Shown: piece after piece, positions 3,014 through 61,286 of the stretch
How the letters are laid out: every line of letters begins with the position of its first letter
Numbering within the stretch: the first letter of the stretch is position 1
From: Candidatus Omnitrophota bacterium
Lineage (GTDB): Bacteria > Omnitrophota > Gorgyraeia > Gygaellales > Profunditerraquicolaceae
Reading direction: 5' to 3'
Assembly (NCBI GenBank): GCA_028710685.1
Contig: JAQTTQ010000002.1
Location: 33,416 to 97,415, forward strand
Length of the DNA: 64,000 nucleotides
Made by a program: the position numbers and the translations under genes
The notes under the pieces: model-generated
What the model was told of the DNA's origin: nothing
The model's database searches: none
The model's input: the letters and a program-made list of their open reading frames with translations, nothing else

Positions 3014-4264
3014 ATGTTCTGGACGAAAACTTTAATACCTACTTTAAAAGAGGTTCCGCAAGAGGCTGAATCAGTAAGCCACCAGCTATTGTTGCGCGCA
3101 GGGCTTGCCCGGATGCTGATGGCAGGGGCGTATTCTTATCTTCCTTTAGGCCTAAGGGTATTAGAGAATATTCAAAAGATTATTATTGAAGAGATGAATT
3201 TTTGCTCTGGTGCGCAGGTATTGCTTCCGGCATTACAGCCTTTAGAGTTATGGCAGCGTTCGGGACGCGATAAAGATATCGGCGAGGTAATGTTCAGATT
3301 TAATGACCGCCGCGGCAGAAAGCTTTGTTTAGGGCCTACGCATGAAGAAATCATTACAGAGTTGATAAAAAACCATGTTTCTAGTTACAAACAGTTGCCC
3401 CTGCTTTTATACCAGATCCAGACGAAATTTCGCGATGAAATCAGGCCGCGTTTTGGTTTAATCAGGGCATGCGAATTTATCATGAAAGATGCCTATAGTT
3501 TTGACCAGGATGAAGAAGGGTTAGAGAAGAATTACCGGATTATGTATGAGGCCTATTTAAGGATTTTTAAGAGATGCGGGCTGGACGTGCTTTCGATAGA
3601 GGCAGATTCCGGGGTTATGGGGGGGAAAGTATCTCATGAATTTATGGTTTCGGCAAAAGACGGAGAAGACGCGGTATTAATCTGCCCTACTTGTAAAAGC
3701 GTCATGGCCTTTAAAGAAGAAGCTGATAAGGTTTGTGTTAAATGTAAGGCCCATCTACAAAAGATAAATGCGATAGAGATCGGGCATATCTTTAAGCTAG
3801 GCACAAAATACAGCCTTGCCTTAGGCGCTAATTTCTTAGATGCCAAAGGCAACCTTAAACCTATAATTATGGGTTGTTACGGGATAGGCGTCTCCAGGAT
3901 TATCTCGGCGGCGATAGAACAAAATCATGATAATGACGGAATCATCTGGCCTAAAGAATTATCTCCGTATCAAGTAATAATTACGGCCTTAGATGTTACC
4001 AATAAAGATATAATGGAAATTTCTTTAAGTTTATATGAAGAGCTTGGCGCTTTAGGTATTAGCGTGTTATTGGATGATCGGGATGAACGGGCAGGGGTTA
4101 AGTTTAAGGATGCCGACCTATTGGGGATACCTTTGCAGTTAATAGTCGGTAAGGGGTCTCTAAAGGATGGTTCGCTTGAGTTGAAAAACAGGATTACCAA
4201 GGAAAAACTTATTAAGTCCAGAGTAGAGATATTAAAGGAGCTGGCTCAACAGATTCATGGGTAG
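3014..4264 (+). CDS. proS: Prolyl-tRNA synthetase, bacterial type lacking the INS editing domain
   Basis: Start is the ATG at 3014 (MFWTKT..), not the upstream ORF start at 2963 that overlaps the ATPase. Class II motifs 2 (FRDEIRPRFGLIRACEF) and 3 (GCYGIGVSRII) are present, followed by a C-terminal anticodon-binding domain. Confidence 0.85.
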   Translation: MFWTKTLIPTLKEVPQEAESVSHQLLLRAGLARMLMAGAYSYLPLGLRVLENIQKIIIEEMNFCSGAQVLLPALQPLELWQRSGRDKDIGEVMFRFNDRRGRKLCLGPTHEEIITELIKNHVSSYKQLPLLLYQIQTKFRDEIRPRFGLIRACEFIMKDAYSFDQDEEGLEKNYRIMYEAYLRIFKRCGLDVLSIEADSGVMGGKVSHEFMVSAKDGEDAVLICPTCKSVMAFKEEADKVCVKCKAHLQKINAIEIGHIFKLGTKYSLALGANFLDAKGNLKPIIMGCYGIGVSRIISAAIEQNHDNDGIIWPKELSPYQVIITALDVTNKDIMEISLSLYEELGALGISVLLDDRDERAGVKFKDADLLGIPLQLIVGKGSLKDGSLELKNRITKEKLIKSRVEILKELAQQIHG

Positions 4265-54118: not shown

Positions 54119-54579
54119 TGATTAAATTCCTGGTGAGGATATTAAGCACTTTTTTTTATGTGGGGTATCTTCCTTTAATCCCCGGTACATTCGCCAGCCT
54201 TGCAGGCATACTGGTGTATATGCTAATTCAAGGATATGCCCTCAACTATGTTCTGGTCACCTTATTAATTACCATTACCGGTTTTCTAGTTTCAGGCCCC
54301 GCGGAGAAGGCAATGCAAAGGAAGGATCCGCCTTATATTGTAATTGATGAAGTCTCCGGCATACTCTTAAGCCTTTTATTTTTGCCTTATGATATAAGGA
54401 TAATAATTCTTGCCTTTATCCTTTTTCGTCTCCTTGATACGCTTAAGCCATACCCGGCCGGTTCCCTAGAGAAGCTTAAGGCAGGGGCAGGTATTATGGC
54501 GGATGATTTGGTAGCGGGGATTTATACCAATATTATACTTCAGGTATCCCTAAGGGTTATTTCTTTTAAGGCTTCATAG
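54118..54579 (+). CDS. pgpA: Phosphatidylglycerophosphatase A
   Basis: FFYVGYLPLIPGTFASLAG.. in the PgpA family. Lies immediately after pgsA. Confidence 0.85.
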   Translation: MIKFLVRILSTFFYVGYLPLIPGTFASLAGILVYMLIQGYALNYVLVTLLITITGFLVSGPAEKAMQRKDPPYIVIDEVSGILLSLLFLPYDIRIIILAFILFRLLDTLKPYPAGSLEKLKAGAGIMADDLVAGIYTNIILQVSLRVISFKAS

Positions 54580-55112
54580 ACTGCACCGCCAGGGGTTAGC
54601 CTGCTCTTAAAGACTGTAATTCTTTCGGCAGTAAAGCTAATCCCTTCTTTATAAAGATCCTCCCCTAAATTGTTCATTGCCGCCATAAGTTTTTCCTTAT
54701 TCTTTGGTGACCTTGTTCTTCCAAGCGTAATATGGCAAGAGAAGGGCTTTTTTTCTTGGATTATTTCTAAGGCTTCCATTCTTTTCTCTAAGGCATAAGC
54801 TAGGTCTTCAATTTTCTTATCTCCATCCTTAACTCCTACCCAAATTACCTTAGGATGGTCTATATCGGGAAAAGTTCCTATGCCGGATAATCCAATCTTG
54901 AATTTCGAGTGATTATGCGCAGTTTCTTCGGTTACCCTGATTACGTTATTTAGCAGGCCTTCGTTTATCTCTCCTAAAAATCTTAGGGTAAGGTGCATAT
55001 TCTCAGGTAGAACCCATCTTATATCTGCCCCGCATTCTTTCAGGTTTGTTTGTATGCGGGAGAGCTTTTCTTTGATATCCGGCGTTAATGTAATTGCAAT
55101 AAAGGCGCGCAC
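54540..55112 (-). CDS. thpR: RNA 2',3'-cyclic phosphodiesterase (ThpR/LigT, 2H family)
   Basis: Two H-x-T/S-x motifs (HLTLRFLGE, HITLGR). Confidence 0.8.
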   Translation of the reverse strand: MRAFIAITLTPDIKEKLSRIQTNLKECGADIRWVLPENMHLTLRFLGEINEGLLNNVIRVTEETAHNHSKFKIGLSGIGTFPDIDHPKVIWVGVKDGDKKIEDLAYALEKRMEALEIIQEKKPFSCHITLGRTRSPKNKEKLMAAMNNLGEDLYKEGISFTAERITVFKSRLTPGGAVYEALKEITLRDT

Positions 55113-55119
55113 GGTTTTC

Positions 55120-55587
55120 TTATAAAATTGATTTTAGTAATTGCAGAGATTGAAGGGCAGTCTGTTTTCTTACCGAAGAGCGGTCTCCTTTAAAAAGGAA
55201 CCTTTGGCAAAGGTTCCTTTTCCCGTCAGTTACGGCAATAAAGGCCGTGCCCACAGGCTTATTTATTCTTGCTCCGGTTGGCCCGGCAATCCCGGTTACC
55301 GCTAACCCTAAATCAGCCTTAGCTAATTTCCTTACATTTTTTGCCATGAGCAGGGCAGTTTCTTCTGAAACAGCCCCGTTCTTGGATAGGATAGAGGCGG
55401 GTATTTTCAAGATCTTATTTTTTATCTGATTGCTGTATGCGGTTATTCCAAGCAGCAGGTATTTTGAGCTTCCCGGGTTATCGGTGAGAATTTTGGAGAT
55501 AAGCCCCGCGGTAGAGGATTCGGCGATAGCAAGGGTTTTGTTTTCTTTAATCAGGGCTTTATGTAAATATTTTGTAAGGTTTTGCAT
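55120..55587 (-). CDS. CinA C-terminal-domain protein (nicotinamide-nucleotide amidohydrolase PncC-like)
   Basis: LAIAESSTAGLISKILTDNPGSS.. in the CinA_C family; stand-alone 155 aa. Confidence 0.8.
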   Translation of the reverse strand: MQNLTKYLHKALIKENKTLAIAESSTAGLISKILTDNPGSSKYLLLGITAYSNQIKNKILKIPASILSKNGAVSEETALLMAKNVRKLAKADLGLAVTGIAGPTGARINKPVGTAFIAVTDGKRNLCQRFLFKGDRSSVRKQTALQSLQLLKSIL

Positions 55588-55620: not shown

Positions 55621-55649
55621 TTGACAAGATTAGTTTTTATGCTATACTA
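55621..55649 (+). promoter_or_regulatory. Sigma70-like promoter TTGACA-17-TATACT driving the FMN riboswitch / rib operon
   Basis: Consensus hexamers immediately upstream of the riboswitch aptamer. Confidence 0.5.
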
Positions 55650-55655
55650 ATTTCA

Positions 55656-55775
55656 ATCAATCTTCAGGGCAGGGTGTAATCCCCGACCGGCGGTTAAGTC
55701 CGCGAGCCTTAAAATAAGGCATGAACCGGTTAGATTCCGGTACCGATGGTACAGTCCAGATAGAAGAAGATAAGT
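55656..55775 (+). ncRNA. FMN riboswitch (RFN element) aptamer
   Basis: CTTCAGGGCAGGGTGTAATCCCCGACCGGCGGTTAAGTCCGCGAGCC..GGTACAGTCCAGATAGAAGAAGAT matches the conserved RFN core (GGGCAGGGUGAAAUUCCCGACCGGCGGUA..AGCCCGCGAGC..CAGUCCGGAUG.AAGAAGAU), and it sits upstream of ribBA. Confidence 0.85.
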
Positions 55776-55785
55776 TTATCTTATG

Positions 55786-55810
55786 CCCGAAGTCAGCCTT
55801 CGGGTTTTTT
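55786..55810 (+). terminator. Intrinsic terminator forming the riboswitch expression platform (CCCGAAG-tcagc-CTTCGGG + TTTTTT)
   Basis: 7-bp GC-rich hairpin followed by a U6 tract, ending 13 nt before the ribBA ATG. Confidence 0.7.
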
Positions 55811-55823
55811 ATTGGAGTCAGAT

Positions 55824-57035
55824 ATGCTTAATACGATACCGGAAATTATTGAAGAATTAAAAAGGGGAAGAATGGTGATCGTCGTTGACGATGAGAGCCG
55901 CGAGAACGAAGGCGATCTGGTCATGCCCGCTTCCTTTGTAAGGGCTGAAGATATCAATTTTATGTCCAAGTTTGGCCGGGGGCTTATCTGTGTACCAATG
56001 GAGGAATCCAGGCTCAGCTTTTTAGGGCTTAGGCCTATGTTAGGCGAGGCTTCCTCTTTAGGGTCAAAAGACCCTTTTTCCACCGCCTGGGTAATATCAA
56101 CAGATGCGGCCTTAGGCGTAACTACGGGTATATCTGCCCATGACCGTTCGCGTACAATCGAAGTCTTAATCAACTCCAGGTCAAGGCCTGAAGATTTAAT
56201 CCGCCCGGGCCATATCTTCCCTTTACGTGCCCGCGAAGGAGGAATTTTGGTGCGCGCCGGACATACCGAAGCATCGGTGGACCTTATGAAATTAAGTGGC
56301 CTGTATCCGGCAGCGGTTATTTGTGAGATTATGAATGATGACGGAAGCATGAGCCGTATGCCGCAGCTTCTTGATTTTGCAAAGAAGCATAATTTAAGAA
56401 TTTGTTCTATTGCCAATCTTATCGAATACCGCCGTAAGTCGGAGAAATTGGTAGAGAGGTTAACCGAGACTATCCTGCCTACTGAATTCGGCAAGTTTAA
56501 TCTTATCCTTTTTCGCGACCTTACCAATGGCAAGGTCCACACAGTGCTTACTGCCGGGAATTGGAAAGAAGAGCCGGTTTTAGTGCGCGTGCATTCGGAG
56601 TGTTTAACCGGAGATGTTTTCGGCTCATTGCGCTGTGATTGCGGCAAGCAATTGTCCAAGGCTATGCAGGCTATATCTGCCGAGGGCAAAGGCGCTATAC
56701 TCTATATGAACCAGGAGGGCAGGGGGATAGGCCTTGTAGAAAAGATTAAGGCCTATAAGCTTCAGGATAAAGGGTTGGATACGGTTGAGGCCAATGAGGC
56801 CTTGGGCCACAAGGCTGATTTAAGAGATTACGGCATAGGCGCTCAGATCTTGGTGGATTTAGGAATAAAGAATATCCGGCTTTTTACCAATAATCCGCGT
56901 AAGATCATAGGCCTGGAAGGTTATGGGCTCAGGGTTGTTGAGAGGGTTTCTCTAGAGATCAAGCATAACCCCTTGAATTATAAATACCTTAAGACCAAGA
57001 AAGAAAAGCTTGGCCATAATTTAAATATAGATTAA
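55824..57035 (+). CDS. ribBA: Bifunctional 3,4-dihydroxy-2-butanone-4-phosphate synthase / GTP cyclohydrolase II
   Basis: DHBP synthase N-half (RENEGDLV) and GTP cyclohydrolase II C-half (CDCG, zinc cysteines). Start placed at the ATG at 55824, after GGAG. Confidence 0.9.
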
Positions 57036-57078: not shown

Positions 57079-57546
57079 ATGAGCAAGATAATAGAAGGCA
57101 GCCTAATTGCCAAGGGTAAAAAGTTTGGTATTATTGCTTCGCGTTTCAATGATTTTATGACTAAGGAATTAGTCTCCGGTTGTAGCGATACCCTTTTAAG
57201 GCACGGGGTTTTAGATCAGGATTTAACTATATCCTGGGTCCCGGGTGCATTTGAGATACCTCTTGTCGCCCAAAAGATGGCCAAGACTAAGTCATACGAT
57301 GCTATTATTTGTTTAGGGACAGTTATCAGGGGCGCAACGCCTCACTTTGATTACATTGCCTCGGAAGTAGCTAAGGGCATAGCCAAGGCTTCTTCTGACT
57401 CGGGTATCCCGGTAATCTTTGGGATTATTACCGCTGATACTATTGAGCAGGCAGTTGAGCGCTCAGGCTCTAAAGACGGAAATAAAGGCCGTGATGCTGC
57501 GCTTTCAGGGATTGAGATGGTGAATCTCCTGGAGAAGATCAAATAA
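57079..57546 (+). CDS. ribH: 6,7-dimethyl-8-ribityllumazine synthase
   Basis: 155 aa in the lumazine synthase family (..[17 protein letters not shown]..). Confidence 0.9.
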
Positions 57547-57962
57547 TGCGTAAACGTAGCCTTGCCCGTGAATTTTCCCTGCAGGTCCTCTATCAGCTGG
57601 ATATTACCAAGGATTCCCCCGAGGCGGCATTGGATAATTTCTGGTCGGCCCAGCCTCAAGAAGGGGCTGATGAAGAGTTAAGGGTTTTCACCTCTAAACT
57701 TGTTAAAGGGGTTATTCTTCATCTTGAAGAAATTGATAAAAAGATTTCTCAGTACGCCCAGAATTGGCAGCTTAAACGTATGGCGGTAGTAGATAGGAAT
57801 ATAATGCGTATGGGCTGTTTTGAGCTTATCTATTGCGATGATATCCCGGCTAAGGTTTCCATTAATGAGGCTGTTGAGCTAGCCAAGAAATTCTCCGGGT
57901 TAGATGCGGGAAAGTTCGTTAATGCGATTTTAGACAAAGTTAAGATAGAGCGGAATAAGTGA
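57546..57962 (+). CDS. nusB: Transcription antitermination factor NusB
   Basis: 138 aa all-helical NusB family protein (ARE..LQVLYQLDI). ATGA junction with ribH. Confidence 0.85.
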   Translation: MRKRSLAREFSLQVLYQLDITKDSPEAALDNFWSAQPQEGADEELRVFTSKLVKGVILHLEEIDKKISQYAQNWQLKRMAVVDRNIMRMGCFELIYCDDIPAKVSINEAVELAKKFSGLDAGKFVNAILDKVKIERNK

Positions 57963-58783
57963 AGTTCGCCGACTTGCATTTACACACTAATTATTCAGAC
58001 GGGACATATACCCCAGAAGAGTTGGTAGAAAAGGCTGTTGGGGCTAAGCTCTCCTGTATTTCTATAACCGATCATGATACGGTAGGGGCTATCCCTGAGG
58101 CAATGGCTGCAGCTAATGCCTCAGGTATTGAGATCTTGCCTGGCATAGAGATTAGCTGTGAGTATGAATTGCGTGAAGTGCATATATTGGGATATCTGAT
58201 AGATTATAAATCATCGGAGTTATTGAAAAGGCTGGAAACTTTAAAAGAAAACCGCATCAGCCGGATATATAAAATAACTGAGAAGTTAAATGCCCTGGGT
58301 ATTGGCTTAAAAGCTGAGGATGTCTTTAGTGTTGCCAACGGCGCTACCGTTGGCAGGCTTCATGTTGCCCGGGCAATGGTATTAAAGGGTTTGGTTAAAA
58401 CTGTTTCTGAGGCCTTCAATAGATATATCGGGGATAGCGGCCCGGCATTTAGTTTAGGTTTCCGTTTTACCCCTGAGGAGGCTATAAAATTCATTCATGA
58501 TAATGCAGGGGTTGCGGTTCTTGCACATCCCTATATAATTAAGGATGAAGAGCTAATATTCAAGCTTATAGGTTTAGGGCTTATGGGGCTGGAAGTTTAT
58601 TATCCCGAACATTCCCAGGGAGAGATTAATTTTTATTTGGGCCTGGCCAAAGAATATAATCTGTTAGTTACCGGAGGCTCTGATTGTCATGGGAGCGCTA
58701 AGCCGCAGGTACGCATTGGCTCGATTAAAATACCTTACGATCTGGTGGAGAAGATGAAAGAGGTAAGGGGGAGATTATCATGA
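57959..58783 (+). CDS. PHP-family phosphoesterase (TrpH/YciV, COG0613 type)
   Basis: ADLHLHTNYSDGT N-motif ... GSDCHG C-motif, 274 aa. Overlaps the nusB stop and the ribD start by 4 nt each. Confidence 0.8.
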   Translation: MKFADLHLHTNYSDGTYTPEELVEKAVGAKLSCISITDHDTVGAIPEAMAAANASGIEILPGIEISCEYELREVHILGYLIDYKSSELLKRLETLKENRISRIYKITEKLNALGIGLKAEDVFSVANGATVGRLHVARAMVLKGLVKTVSEAFNRYIGDSGPAFSLGFRFTPEEAIKFIHDNAGVAVLAHPYIIKDEELIFKLIGLGLMGLEVYYPEHSQGEINFYLGLAKEYNLLVTGGSDCHGSAKPQVRIGSIKIPYDLVEKMKEVRGRLS

Positions 58784-59871
58784 TAAAAAGCCCTGGATAT
58801 TATATGAATTTAGCTATGCGGCTTGCCTTAAAGGGAAGGGGTAAGACTTATCCTAACCCTATGGTTGGCGCATTAGTCGTAAATAAGGGCAGGATTGTTG
58901 GAAGAGGCTTCCATGCGAAAGCAGGCCTGCCTCATGCGGAGATTGTGGCTTTGGATGAGGCCGGAAGTTATGCAAAGGGGGCTACGCTTTATGTTACCTT
59001 AGAGCCGTGTGCCCATTTTGGGCTTACCCCTCCCTGCGTAAACAGGATTATAGAAAGCCGTATTAGAGAGGTAGTTGTGGGAATGGTTGATCCTAATCCT
59101 ATCAATAACGGTAAGGGTATTGCAATATTAAGGCAGTTTGGGATTAGGGTTAAGGTGGGTTTCTTAGAAGATAAACTAAGGCGGATGAATGAAGTCTTTG
59201 TGAAATATATAACTAAGAGGCTTCCTTTTGTAACGGTTAAGGTTGCCCAGTCATTAGACGGCAGGATTGCTACCAGGACAGGAAATTCCAAGTGGATTAC
59301 CTCTGACAGTTCGCGTTCCTTTGCCCACCGTATACGCGAGGATTTTGATGCCGTTATGGTGGGGGTCAATACGGTTTTGCGCGATAACCCTAAACTTAGT
59401 TCATGGTTTTCAAAAAAGCAGCCGGTAAAGATTATAGTAGATAGCCAATTAAGTACCCCTGAAGATTCAAATATTTTCTCTAAAGGTTCTTCGGTTATAA
59501 TCGTTACCTTACCCGTTAAGCCCGGTCTGGAGACGGATAACAGAAAGATAATTGAGCAGAAGGCCCGTATTCTAGAGGTCAAGGAGAAAGACGGTCAGAT
59601 AAACCTTAAGGATATGTTTAAGAAACTGTTAAAGGAAGGTATCTTTAATGTTCTAGTTGAGGGTGGCGGTACTTTAAACGGCTCGCTATTTGATGACGCA
59701 TTAGTGGATAAGGTGATGTTTTTTATTTCTCCGAAGATTATCGGGGGCAAAGATGCAATCAGCTCGGTGATGGGGCAGGGGGTTGTGCGCGTTGAGCGGT
59801 CTATAAAATTAAAAGAATTAAAATTAAGTCGGTTCGGGGAAGATTTTTTGATTGAAGGATATGTTAAATAG
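58780..59871 (+). CDS. ribD: Bifunctional diaminohydroxyphosphoribosylaminopyrimidine deaminase / 5-amino-6-(5-phosphoribosylamino)uracil reductase
   Basis: CMP/dCMP deaminase zinc motifs (HAEIVAL, LEPCAHFG) and a C-terminal RibD reductase domain. Confidence 0.9.
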   Translation: MIKSPGYYMNLAMRLALKGRGKTYPNPMVGALVVNKGRIVGRGFHAKAGLPHAEIVALDEAGSYAKGATLYVTLEPCAHFGLTPPCVNRIIESRIREVVVGMVDPNPINNGKGIAILRQFGIRVKVGFLEDKLRRMNEVFVKYITKRLPFVTVKVAQSLDGRIATRTGNSKWITSDSSRSFAHRIREDFDAVMVGVNTVLRDNPKLSSWFSKKQPVKIIVDSQLSTPEDSNIFSKGSSVIIVTLPVKPGLETDNRKIIEQKARILEVKEKDGQINLKDMFKKLLKEGIFNVLVEGGGTLNGSLFDDALVDKVMFFISPKIIGGKDAISSVMGQGVVRVERSIKLKELKLSRFGEDFLIEGYVK

Positions 59872-59893: not shown

Positions 59894-60484
59894 ATGTTTT
59901 CAGGCATAGTTGAAGAATTAGGGATAGTAAAAAGGATATCGCCTACGGGTAATGTCACCCTTCTTGAAATTTCCGTTATTAAAGTCTTGGAGGGTTTAAA
60001 GATAGGCGATAGCATCTTGGTAAACGGGGTTTGTCTTACGGCGGTTAAGGTTAGTAAAGACCGGGTAAGCTTTGAGGCAGTACCTAATACGCTTAAGGTT
60101 ACAAATCTTAGGTATTTAAGGATCGGCGAGAAGGTTAATCTTGAGCGCAGCCTGAAGGTCGGCGAAAGGATATCGGGGCATTTTGTTTCGGGCCATATTG
60201 ATTGTATAGGGATTATCCGAAGAAAGAGCATCCTTTGCGGTAATTTAGTTTTTGAAATATCCATACCGCCGCAGTATATTAAATATTGCCTTTCTAAAGG
60301 TTCAGTTGCCGTTGACGGCATAAGCTTAACCATACAGGAAATTAAGTCTAATTCGCTCAATGTTTATGTAATTCCTCATACCCTTAAAGAGACAACCTTA
60401 AGTTTTAAGGGGCCTTCAAGCAGGGTTAATGTCGAATTCGATATGTTGGCTAAAGGCCGGGCCGCATCTTATGTTAACTTCTAA
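59894..60484 (+). CDS. ribE: Riboflavin synthase alpha subunit
   Basis: MFSGIVEELG.. and the duplicated lumazine-binding domain. Confidence 0.85.
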   Translation: MFSGIVEELGIVKRISPTGNVTLLEISVIKVLEGLKIGDSILVNGVCLTAVKVSKDRVSFEAVPNTLKVTNLRYLRIGEKVNLERSLKVGERISGHFVSGHIDCIGIIRRKSILCGNLVFEISIPPQYIKYCLSKGSVAVDGISLTIQEIKSNSLNVYVIPHTLKETTLSFKGPSSRVNVEFDMLAKGRAASYVNF

Positions 60485-60522: not shown

Positions 60523-61218
60523 ATGAAATTAGGAGAAAAGGATAAATCAAGAGAGTTGAGGCTGCAGGGATATTCAATGAAACAAATAGCAGGCTTATTA
60601 GGTGTATCTAAGGGCTCTGTGAGCAACTGGGTAAGAGATATACCCTTACCCCTTGAAGCAGCGATTAATATCGACAATCAATACTTAATTGGCAGGGAGA
60701 AGGCGCGGGTAACCAGGCTTAACAATATCACTTCTAGGAATAATGAAATATTTCGCATATGCAAAGAAGAGATAGTGCCATTTTCGATAAGAGATCTTTG
60801 GATGGCAGGGTTAATGATTTACGCGGGTGAAGGAAATAAATCTTCCGTTGTGTCGAATCAACATGTTGAAGTTGCTAATTCTGACCCTAACATTCTTAGG
60901 ATTTTTATTAAATTTCTTGTGGAAATTTGTCTTATTTCAAAAGGAAATATTATAATCCGTTTGATTTTATATAAGGATATCAATATAGAAGAGGCGTATA
61001 GATATTGGTCAGCAGAACTTAATATACCCCGGGCGCAATTCCGTAAAGAATTTATAAAACCGAGCTACAAAGATTCTCCATACCGACATCTTCGTCGTTC
61101 CTGCTATGGTACGGCTCACGTATGTTTATACGATATAAAAATCTATCGTAGAATAATGGGTTGGTTAAAAGCTGTATATGAGAATTTAATATTAGATGAA
61201 TTGATTATCGGGAAGTAG
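60523..61218 (+). CDS. HTH-domain plus LAGLIDADG-fold (homing-endonuclease-like) protein; AT-rich and probably mobile
   Basis: N-terminal HTH (LRLQGYSMKQIAGLLGVSKGSVSNWV), then DLWMAGLMIYAGEGNKSS (LAGLIDADG-type helix with GEG) and ..ANSDPNILRIFIKFL..KGNIII. Own TTGCCA-17-TATACT promoter 6 nt before the ATG. The stop codon lies inside tRNA-Pro. Confidence 0.55.
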   Translation: MKLGEKDKSRELRLQGYSMKQIAGLLGVSKGSVSNWVRDIPLPLEAAINIDNQYLIGREKARVTRLNNITSRNNEIFRICKEEIVPFSIRDLWMAGLMIYAGEGNKSSVVSNQHVEVANSDPNILRIFIKFLVEICLISKGNIIIRLILYKDINIEEAYRYWSAELNIPRAQFRKEFIKPSYKDSPYRHLRRSCYGTAHVCLYDIKIYRRIMGWLKAVYENLILDELIIGK

Positions 61219-61286
61219 CGTAGTTTGGCTAGCGCGCGACGTTCGGGACGTCGAGGTCGTGGGTTCGAATCCCACCTTCCCGACCA
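61209..61286 (+). tRNA. tRNA-Pro (anticodon CGG), CCA encoded
   Basis: Cloverleaf folded by hand: acceptor CGGGAAG/CTTCCCG, D-arm GCGT/GCGC, anticodon stem CGACG/CGTCG with loop TTCGGGA, T-arm GTGGG-TTCGAAT-CCCAC, discriminator A, then CCA. Confidence 0.85.

Follow-up and report, generated by a model that had tools for sequence, protein, structure and literature searches.

Enzymes of the RNase AM (YciV/TrpH) family degrade short RNAs and diribonucleotides in the 5'-to-3' direction, and RNase AM carries out the 5'-end maturation of each of the three rRNAs. Paralogs of RNase AM are fused to RNase III, an rRNA-processing factor (Jain 2020). The E. coli enzyme also removes flavin adenine dinucleotide (FAD) caps from RNA, a reaction that frees FAD in intact form and has an effect on the FAD-capped RNA of the cell; this deFADding activity could not be told apart from the ordinary 5'-phosphate (5'-P) exonuclease activity and has been described as its intrinsic by-product. 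As part of the antitermination complex, NusB contacts the rRNA leader at boxA. Here, we examine a gene for a PHP phosphoesterase of the COG0613 group that lies directly downstream of nusB in a riboflavin (rib) operon, within a 64,000-nt stretch of DNA from a Candidatus Omnitrophota bacterium (GenBank assembly GCA_028710685.1, contig JAQTTQ010000002.1, positions 33,416 to 97,415), which we refer to as the window. Positions are window coordinates on the + strand unless stated.

The surrounding operon raises a second question, which concerns riboflavin synthesis itself. To our knowledge, the dephosphorylation of 5-amino-6-ribitylaminouracil 5'-phosphate (ARPP, also abbreviated ARAPDP), which is sometimes termed RibZ, is the only step of the pathway without a general dedicated enzyme, and a riboswitch-controlled, operon-encoded candidate for this step would be valuable. 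The phosphatases described for this reaction include HAD-family proteins of E. coli (YigB/YbjI), B. subtilis (YcsE/YwtE/YitU) and plants (PyrP2), as well as a histidine-family phosphatase and an inositol monophosphatase (IMPase) in Aquifex. A first-pass annotation of the window had described the known enzymes as HAD proteins that are usually unlinked to rib genes; they are indeed not encoded in rib operons as a rule, and the Aquifex enzymes extend the set beyond the HAD family. We considered Aquifex as a possible precedent for a PHP-type ARPP phosphatase and rejected it, since the paper in question describes the histidine-family phosphatase and the IMPase. In the literature that we searched, there was no PHP-family ARPP phosphatase, nothing relevant that links COG0613 or PHP proteins with riboflavin or with the flavin mononucleotide (FMN) riboswitch, and no paper that links NusB with RNase AM or a PHP enzyme.

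Results

The PHP gene (57959..58783) encodes a protein of 274 aa with the Pfam domain PF02811, and its open reading frame (ORF) is intact in the window sequence and opens with a GTG start. The upstream gene is nusB (57546..57962; TIGR01951, 146 bits, above its cut-off), which encodes the transcription antitermination factor, and the two genes overlap by 4 nt at a junction that reads GTGA. Comparison across phyla revealed that the gene follows nusB rather than the riboflavin pathway, because outside of Omnitrophota nusB is kept, either adjacent in Verrucomicrobiota or fused in Brocadiales, and the association with ribD, ribE, ribBA and the riboswitch is lost.

The evidence from other lineages begins with a metagenome scan, for which the query was a consensus from 150 representatives of the protein's subfamily and which returned 80 further loci. 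These loci fall into three classes: the operon of the Omnitrophota type, a nusB-PHP-ftsY arrangement that we identified as Verrucomicrobiota, and PHP genes without nusB or rib genes. Both flanks were available for 45 loci, among which nusB and ribD were both adjacent in 14, only nusB was adjacent in 10 and neither was adjacent in 21; nusB was therefore located upstream of the PHP gene in 24 of the 45, and PHP-ribD adjacency without nusB was seen in none of them (0/45). The gene order that the first-pass annotation had emphasized was kept, as far as the contigs reach, in all 80 Omnitrophota loci of the genome scan described below. In Verrucomicrobiota, the ribD-ribE pair is either directly adjoining or 1-6 kb away (e.g., 4.5-5.7 kb; L172 8504-17364). 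At one such locus (L136, 5356-9550), ftsY lies between the PHP gene and ribD and overlaps the ribD start by 4 nt, which places a signal recognition particle receptor gene inside the rib cluster. The Verrucomicrobiota and Brocadiales loci that we scanned yielded no match to the FMN riboswitch.

In Brocadiales, the two genes have become one. Greater length set two of the 150 best representatives apart, and both are NusB-PHP fusions; judged by length, there were no fusions of PHP with a Rib protein among the 150, and NusB fusions were the only ones found. When a search was seeded with one fusion, all of the top 120 clusters carried both Pfam domains, which sets the count at no fewer than 120 sequence clusters. 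The sources are Scalindua, Brocadia and other Brocadiales (anammox Planctomycetota), and the proteins, of 424-472 aa, are usually annotated only as 'transcription antitermination factor NusB'. Identity to a Scalindua reference ranged from 49 to 84% for 35 aligned fusions. Within the loci examined (L086-L091; e.g., L086 8001-9308), the fusion gene lies between ribH and ftsY, and no ribBA, ribD or ribE is located near it. In an AlphaFold2 (AF2) model of the fusion (predicted TM-score 0.63), both domains are well folded and the linker between them (residues 135-156) is disordered, which indicates a tether and not a fixed complex. As a separate and unrelated feature, a group II intron domain (RF02003, 104 bits) is located at L088 553-691, near restriction-modification genes and about 7 kb upstream of a Brocadia NusB-PHP gene.

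Loci of the third class showed recurring neighbors of other kinds, namely formiminotransferase-cyclodeaminase, RNase Y-SpoVS, and SppA together with a MiaB/RimO-like enzyme. In one lineage, the PHP gene follows RNase Y, a gene of 263-371 aa and SpoVS, and in a further lineage it lies between SppA and a MiaB/RimO-like radical-SAM methylthiotransferase. The RNase Y-SpoVS and MiaB/RimO-like neighborhoods are RNA-related contexts, other members lie beside unrelated genes, and rib neighbors of the subfamily were never seen in the lineages of this class. Loci L110, L131, L161 and L169 (e.g., L161 4105-7810) cover the two lineages of the subfamily with RNA-related neighbors. As for nusB itself, its locus in E. 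coli reads ribD-ribE-nusB-thiL-pgpA and has no PHP gene. This order confirms that nusB, although it has no part in flavin chemistry, has long been resident in rib clusters.

We also examined the PHP protein itself. Its score against PF02811 was 53.6 bits (cut-off 26.4), and the first-pass annotation had the family right, as both this domain and structure matches place the protein with the COG0613 phosphoesterases of the TrpH/YciV type. The best NCBIfam model was NF041577 (3',5'-nucleoside bisphosphate phosphatase), with 180.9 bits against a cut-off of 400, and the model for RNase Rnm (NF047791) gave 157.8 bits against a cut-off of 375. Sequence matches in the PDB were approximately equidistant, at 31-34% identity, and comprised the V. 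cholerae and E. coli RNase AM proteins, Cv1693 and BAD_1165. An exhaustive search of 1.84 billion representatives with the window protein gave a best 150 with 39-55% identity and 214-305 bits, as opposed to about 110 bits for characterized enzymes; there were 3,165 representative clusters at E <= 1e-30, a count that includes the protein's subfamily branch. As judged by these sequence comparisons, the protein belongs to a very large, uncharacterized COG0613 subfamily. In a neighbor-joining tree, which lacks bootstrap support and is indicative only, the nusB-linked PHP proteins of three phyla grouped together, with proteobacterial RNase AM and Cv1693 outside. No second PHP paralog was found within the window.

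The AF2 model of the protein, with a mean predicted local distance difference test score (pLDDT) of 92.7, features a (beta/alpha)7 barrel, in distorted form, and a helical insertion lobe closing a nucleotide pocket. Foldseek gave superpositions of the entire model, with the insertion lobe included, on PDB entries 9ETK (V. cholerae RNase AM), 3E0F and 2YB1, and the TM-scores were 0.82-0.87. We assigned active-site residues by alignment to the RNase AM structure paper. All nine metal ligands are present (H7, H9, D14, H39, E64, H75, H190, D242 and H244, which correspond to RNase AM H13/H15, D20, H45, E72, H83, H198, D255 and H257). The pocket for the nucleotide 5'-phosphate is formed by R99, R102 and R133 (RNase AM R107, R110 and R141), and the base-stacking residue is F153 (RNase AM F161). 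The ligands, the Arg triad and the Phe show no variation among 20 Omnitrophota proteins and almost none among the 150 subfamily representatives.

Within Omnitrophota, the gene is found consistently in the riboflavin operon. The window protein is 100% identical to a protein of an NCBI metagenome-assembled genome (MAG), annotated as 'PHP domain-containing protein', and its contigs share the gene order. A genome scan with one genome per species, queried with an alignment of 20 homologs, returned 80 loci. All of these species-level loci (80/80) are from Omnitrophota, with PHP identities of 51-94%, and in each the PHP gene occupies the same order beside nusB and/or ribD, as far as the contigs reach. 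The gap from nusB to the PHP gene has a median of -4 nt, with overlap in 55 of 78 loci, and that from the PHP gene to ribD also has a median of -4 nt, with overlap in 47 of 77 and a maximum of 91 nt. These are the tightest junctions of the operon; the ribH-nusB and ribD-ribE junctions are looser, each with 11 gaps of at least 100 nt. An FMN riboswitch was found in eight of nine Omnitrophota relatives tested. The embedding of the PHP gene in this operon is not due to chance. Flanking synteny is likewise kept, with pgsA-pgpA upstream and acyP-ligA downstream, and because this wider synteny is conserved, the arrangement is one vertically inherited layout and does not amount to 80 independent observations. 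Several loci (L008, L012, L015, L024 and others) have the full Omnitrophota synteny in records labeled 'uncultured Planctomycetales' or 'Candidatus Paceibacterota', labels that are probably taxonomic mislabels or the result of bin contamination.

We identified the genes of the operon in the window with Pfam and NCBIfam models and the riboswitch with Rfam, which confirmed the order riboswitch-ribBA-ribH-nusB-PHP-ribD-ribE given by the first-pass annotation. A sigma-70-like promoter, TTGACA-16-TGnTATACT, is located at 55621..55648 and matches the consensus at 11 of 12 positions with an extended -10 TG, a match to the consensus only. It is followed by the aptamer of the FMN riboswitch (RFN element) at 55656..55775, a full-length match to RF00050 with 106.1 bits against a gathering threshold of 66.2, and by a GC-rich terminator hairpin of the expression platform with a T-run at 55785..55812 (GCCCGAAG-loop-CTTCGGGT, then TTTTTTATT). 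Promoter, aptamer, and hairpin with T-run form a transcription-attenuation layout. The first gene is ribBA (55812..57035), which encodes a 3,4-dihydroxy-2-butanone 4-phosphate synthase/GTP cyclohydrolase II (PF00926 and PF00925; NF006803, 576 bits, above its cut-off). Next is ribH (57079..57546; TIGR00114, 177 bits) for 6,7-dimethyl-8-ribityllumazine synthase, the stop codon of which overlaps nusB by 1 nt at a TAATG junction. Downstream of the PHP gene, ribD (58780..59871; TIGR00326, 362 bits) encodes the deaminase/reductase, and the last gene, ribE/ribC (59894..60484; NF006767, 205 bits), encodes riboflavin synthase. The PHP stop overlaps ribD by 4 nt at an ATGA junction, so that both of the 4-nt overlaps that had been proposed for the gene can be read directly in the sequence. 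The PHP gene is predicted to be downstream of the RFN element in one transcription unit; no intergenic gaps or strong terminators were seen between the two, and a weak match to a promoter consensus at 57107-57134 may mark an internal promoter.

Several neighboring features lie outside of the operon. On the - strand (54540-55587), two genes are divergent from the rib promoter: one encodes a LigT/ThpR-type 2',3'-cyclic phosphodiesterase of the 2'-5' RNA ligase family, and the other belongs to the CinA family. The pair pgsA-pgpA is just upstream of the rib region on the + strand, which recalls the E. coli cluster that ends in pgpA. A 231-aa helix-turn-helix ORF at 60523-61218 (+) lies between the riboflavin synthase gene and tRNA-Pro(CGG) (61209-61286), and overlaps the start of the tRNA by about 10 nt. 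The contig L005, which encodes an identical PHP protein, has no gene called at the corresponding position (3085-3248), and a gap of only about 160 nt separates its ribE from acyP, which suggests that the ORF beside tRNA-Pro is a strain-variable insertion. The same genome also carries rbfA, a DHH/DHHA1 (NrnA-like) gene and ribF (FAD synthetase) at L005 8778-11000, which is about 8 kb downstream of the operon and beyond the end of the window. The DHH/DHHA1 protein is a candidate pAp (adenosine 3',5'-bisphosphate) phosphatase or nanoRNase, the function of which could overlap that of the PHP enzyme.

Discussion

We favor, with moderate confidence, a reading in which the PHP protein is an enzyme of a nusB module that resembles RNase AM and pAp phosphatase. 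This reading draws on the fold, the catalytic and nucleotide-pocket residues, the gene linkage and the fusion, and we infer the substrate as well as a functional connection to NusB and rRNA. The enzyme would use a trinuclear metal site, bind a 5'-phosphorylated nucleotide in the Arg-lined pocket and hydrolyze the phosphoester on its 3' side, with chemistry like that of the pAp phosphatase Cv1693 and of RNase AM as a 5'-to-3' oligoribonuclease that matures rRNA. The nusB-PHP module is kept in phyla related to the Planctomycetota-Verrucomicrobiota-Chlamydiota (PVC) group, namely Omnitrophota, Verrucomicrobiota and the anammox Planctomycetota, and the PHP gene would owe its place in the riboflavin operon to nusB, which has accompanied rib clusters since ancient times. 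The likely role would be the trimming or clearing of 5'-phosphorylated RNA ends and small nucleotides, with a site of action probably near NusB and therefore near nascent rRNA. Given a NusB fusion that is stable across an order and the binding of NusB to boxA, the simplest arrangement may be an enzyme placed near nascent rRNA or other NusB-bound RNA. Probably, then, the PHP protein is not a step of riboflavin synthesis. The first-pass annotation had named an RNase AM-like rRNA-processing enzyme that rides with nusB as its second choice. That idea has become the better supported of its two, through the fusion, the linkage and the pocket, but the protein belongs to a separate, uncharacterized subfamily and is not a clear ortholog of RNase AM.

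Several observations weigh against this reading. The protein is not an ortholog of either RNase AM or Cv1693, because its identity to them is 31-34% and its scores are far below both NCBIfam equivalog cut-offs; the activity proposed for the subfamily is a prediction. The Arg of the 'HPGR' motif, which in RNase AM (R201) contacts the scissile phosphate, is absent, and the window protein has HPY followed by a two-residue gap. The equivalent of R201 is missing across most of the subfamily and its loss is not peculiar to rib-embedded proteins. No fixed NusB-PHP interface was predicted in the AF2 model of the fusion. In Omnitrophota, the junction with ribD is as tight as that with nusB (median -4 nt), and rib genes stay nearby in all three phyla, with ribH in Brocadiales and ribD-ribE in many Verrucomicrobiota, so that a link to flavins is conceivable.

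Some of these points also fit a simpler explanation, that the protein serves general housekeeping as a pAp phosphatase or nanoRNase and is functionally unconnected with both NusB and riboflavin, and that the linkage is a frozen accident of genome organisation in PVC bacteria. The missing interface in the AF2 model is consistent with this explanation, as are the wider synteny that is also kept around the Omnitrophota operon and the approximately half of the sampled subfamily members that have no nusB or rib neighbors. However, a fusion architecture that is order-wide, free of paralogs and present in at least 120 clusters is difficult to square with the absence of any tie, the nusB-PHP overlap is kept in 55 of 78 Omnitrophota loci, and the DHH/DHHA1 gene about 8 kb downstream could supply the pAp phosphatase or nanoRNase activity. 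We consider this explanation unlikely.

The first-pass annotation had preferred the PHP protein as the missing ARPP phosphatase. In this case, it would represent a fourth enzyme family for the reaction, co-translated with RibD and repressed by FMN in Omnitrophota, as either the sole or the second function of a promiscuous phosphoesterase. Several points speak for it: the gene is located between ribH and ribD, within a complete operon controlled by an FMN riboswitch; the substrate is formed by RibD and the product is consumed by RibH; of the junctions compared in 77 relatives, the ATGA overlap with ribD is the tightest and varies least; and the layout is still seen at PHP identities as low as about 43-51%. 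No dedicated enzyme is universal for the step, which is often performed by promiscuous enzymes that differ by organism, with non-HAD solutions in Aquifex, and phosphomonoesterases are known among PHP enzymes, histidinol-phosphate phosphatase and pAp phosphatase being examples. Membership in the operon is nonetheless the only positive evidence, and this argument is undermined because nusB and ftsY, neither of which is a riboflavin enzyme, show the same membership: nusB is in the same operon, and ftsY of Verrucomicrobiota overlaps ribD likewise. Outside of Omnitrophota, nusB is kept while the adjacency to ribD and the riboswitch are lost, and the rib linkage is neither independent of other passengers nor recurrent across lineages. 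A fusion exists with NusB, and no Rib fusion was seen among the 150 best representatives. The Arg triad and the Phe are invariant, as they are in relatives without rib linkage, and the single phosphate of ARPP would take the metal site, which would leave the 5'-phosphate pocket unused; the ARPP reading accounts for neither the NusB fusion nor the conservation of this pocket. Furthermore, the PHP fold is outside of the families with demonstrated ARPP phosphatase activity (HAD, histidine phosphatase and IMPase). We therefore regard a role for the protein in ARPP dephosphorylation as improbable, and the expectation for an operon-encoded candidate is lowered because the protein is better explained as part of the nusB module.

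That the protein acts instead on flavin nucleotides, by removing FAD caps from RNA or hydrolyzing FAD/FMN-type compounds to recover flavin when FMN is scarce, is very unlikely: E. coli RNase AM has deFADding activity, and the riboswitch and terminator would turn the gene on when FMN is low, but deFADding has been described as an intrinsic by-product of the 5'-P exonuclease, FAD caps are rare, the scanned Verrucomicrobiota and Brocadiales loci have no flavin riboswitch, and the rib-embedded proteins have no specific sequence feature.

The nusB-module reading admits a more specific form, in which the COG0613 PHP protein is a dedicated partner of NusB in PVC bacteria, translationally coupled to it or, in Brocadiales, tethered by a flexible linker; carried by NusB on boxA, it would act during transcription, either on the rRNA 5' leader as this emerges or on other transcripts to which NusB is bound. 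This form is tentative, a possibility that may well prove wrong; if true, the protein would be an unrecognized enzymatic accessory of the antitermination and rRNA-maturation machinery. The analysis brings out a large, uncharacterized branch of the RNase AM/pAp-phosphatase family, and the NusB-PHP gene pair, together with the fusion in anammox bacteria, points to a link between transcription antitermination and the processing of RNA 5' ends. Neither the nusB-PHP module nor the Brocadiales fusion was found described in the literature searched. The locus also offers a caution for annotation through guilt by association, as rib operons hold long-term passengers, which include nusB widely and ftsY in Verrucomicrobiota.

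With the known ARPP phosphatases, the protein has in common the hypothesized reaction only; in that role it would depend on metal as a phosphomonoesterase, as most of them do, in which the histidine-family enzyme of Aquifex differs; the folds of these phosphatases are unrelated to PHP, and their genes are as a rule located outside of rib operons. SuhB, of the E. coli rRNA antitermination complex, provides a precedent for a protein of the inositol-monophosphatase fold that works with NusB/NusE. It differs in its fold and in its structural role, and for the PHP protein membership in that complex is conjectural. BAD_1165 of Bifidobacterium adolescentis (PDB 3E0F/3O0F), a PHP phosphoesterase from structural genomics, is placed in or near the same broad subfamily in the tree; the motif GGSDxHGxxKP is common to both proteins and their TM-scores are 0.82-0.87, with an identity of 33%.

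The closest likenesses in chemistry are to two characterized enzymes. The pAp phosphatase Cv1693 of Chromobacterium violaceum (PDB 2YB1) is alike in fold, in its trinuclear site and in the residues that bind AMP or the 5'-phosphate, and its NCBIfam model is the one with the top score; it differs in that the two proteins are 31% identical, the window protein reaches 181 bits where the model's cut-off is 400, and the Arg after the HPG motif is absent from the window protein. RNase AM (YciV/TrpH) of E. coli, V. cholerae and P. aeruginosa differs through an identity of 32-34%, an NF047791 score of 158 against 375, the missing R201 and a separate clade in the tree, and E. coli yciV is not known to be adjacent to nusB. 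The PHP barrel with its insertion lobe is nevertheless the same (TM-score 0.86 to 9ETK), and the metal ligands, the R107/R110/R141 pocket and F161 are kept in the window protein. In both cases, moreover, a factor related to rRNA is linked or fused to the enzyme, which is RNase III for RNase AM (Jain 2020) and NusB for the subfamily described here.

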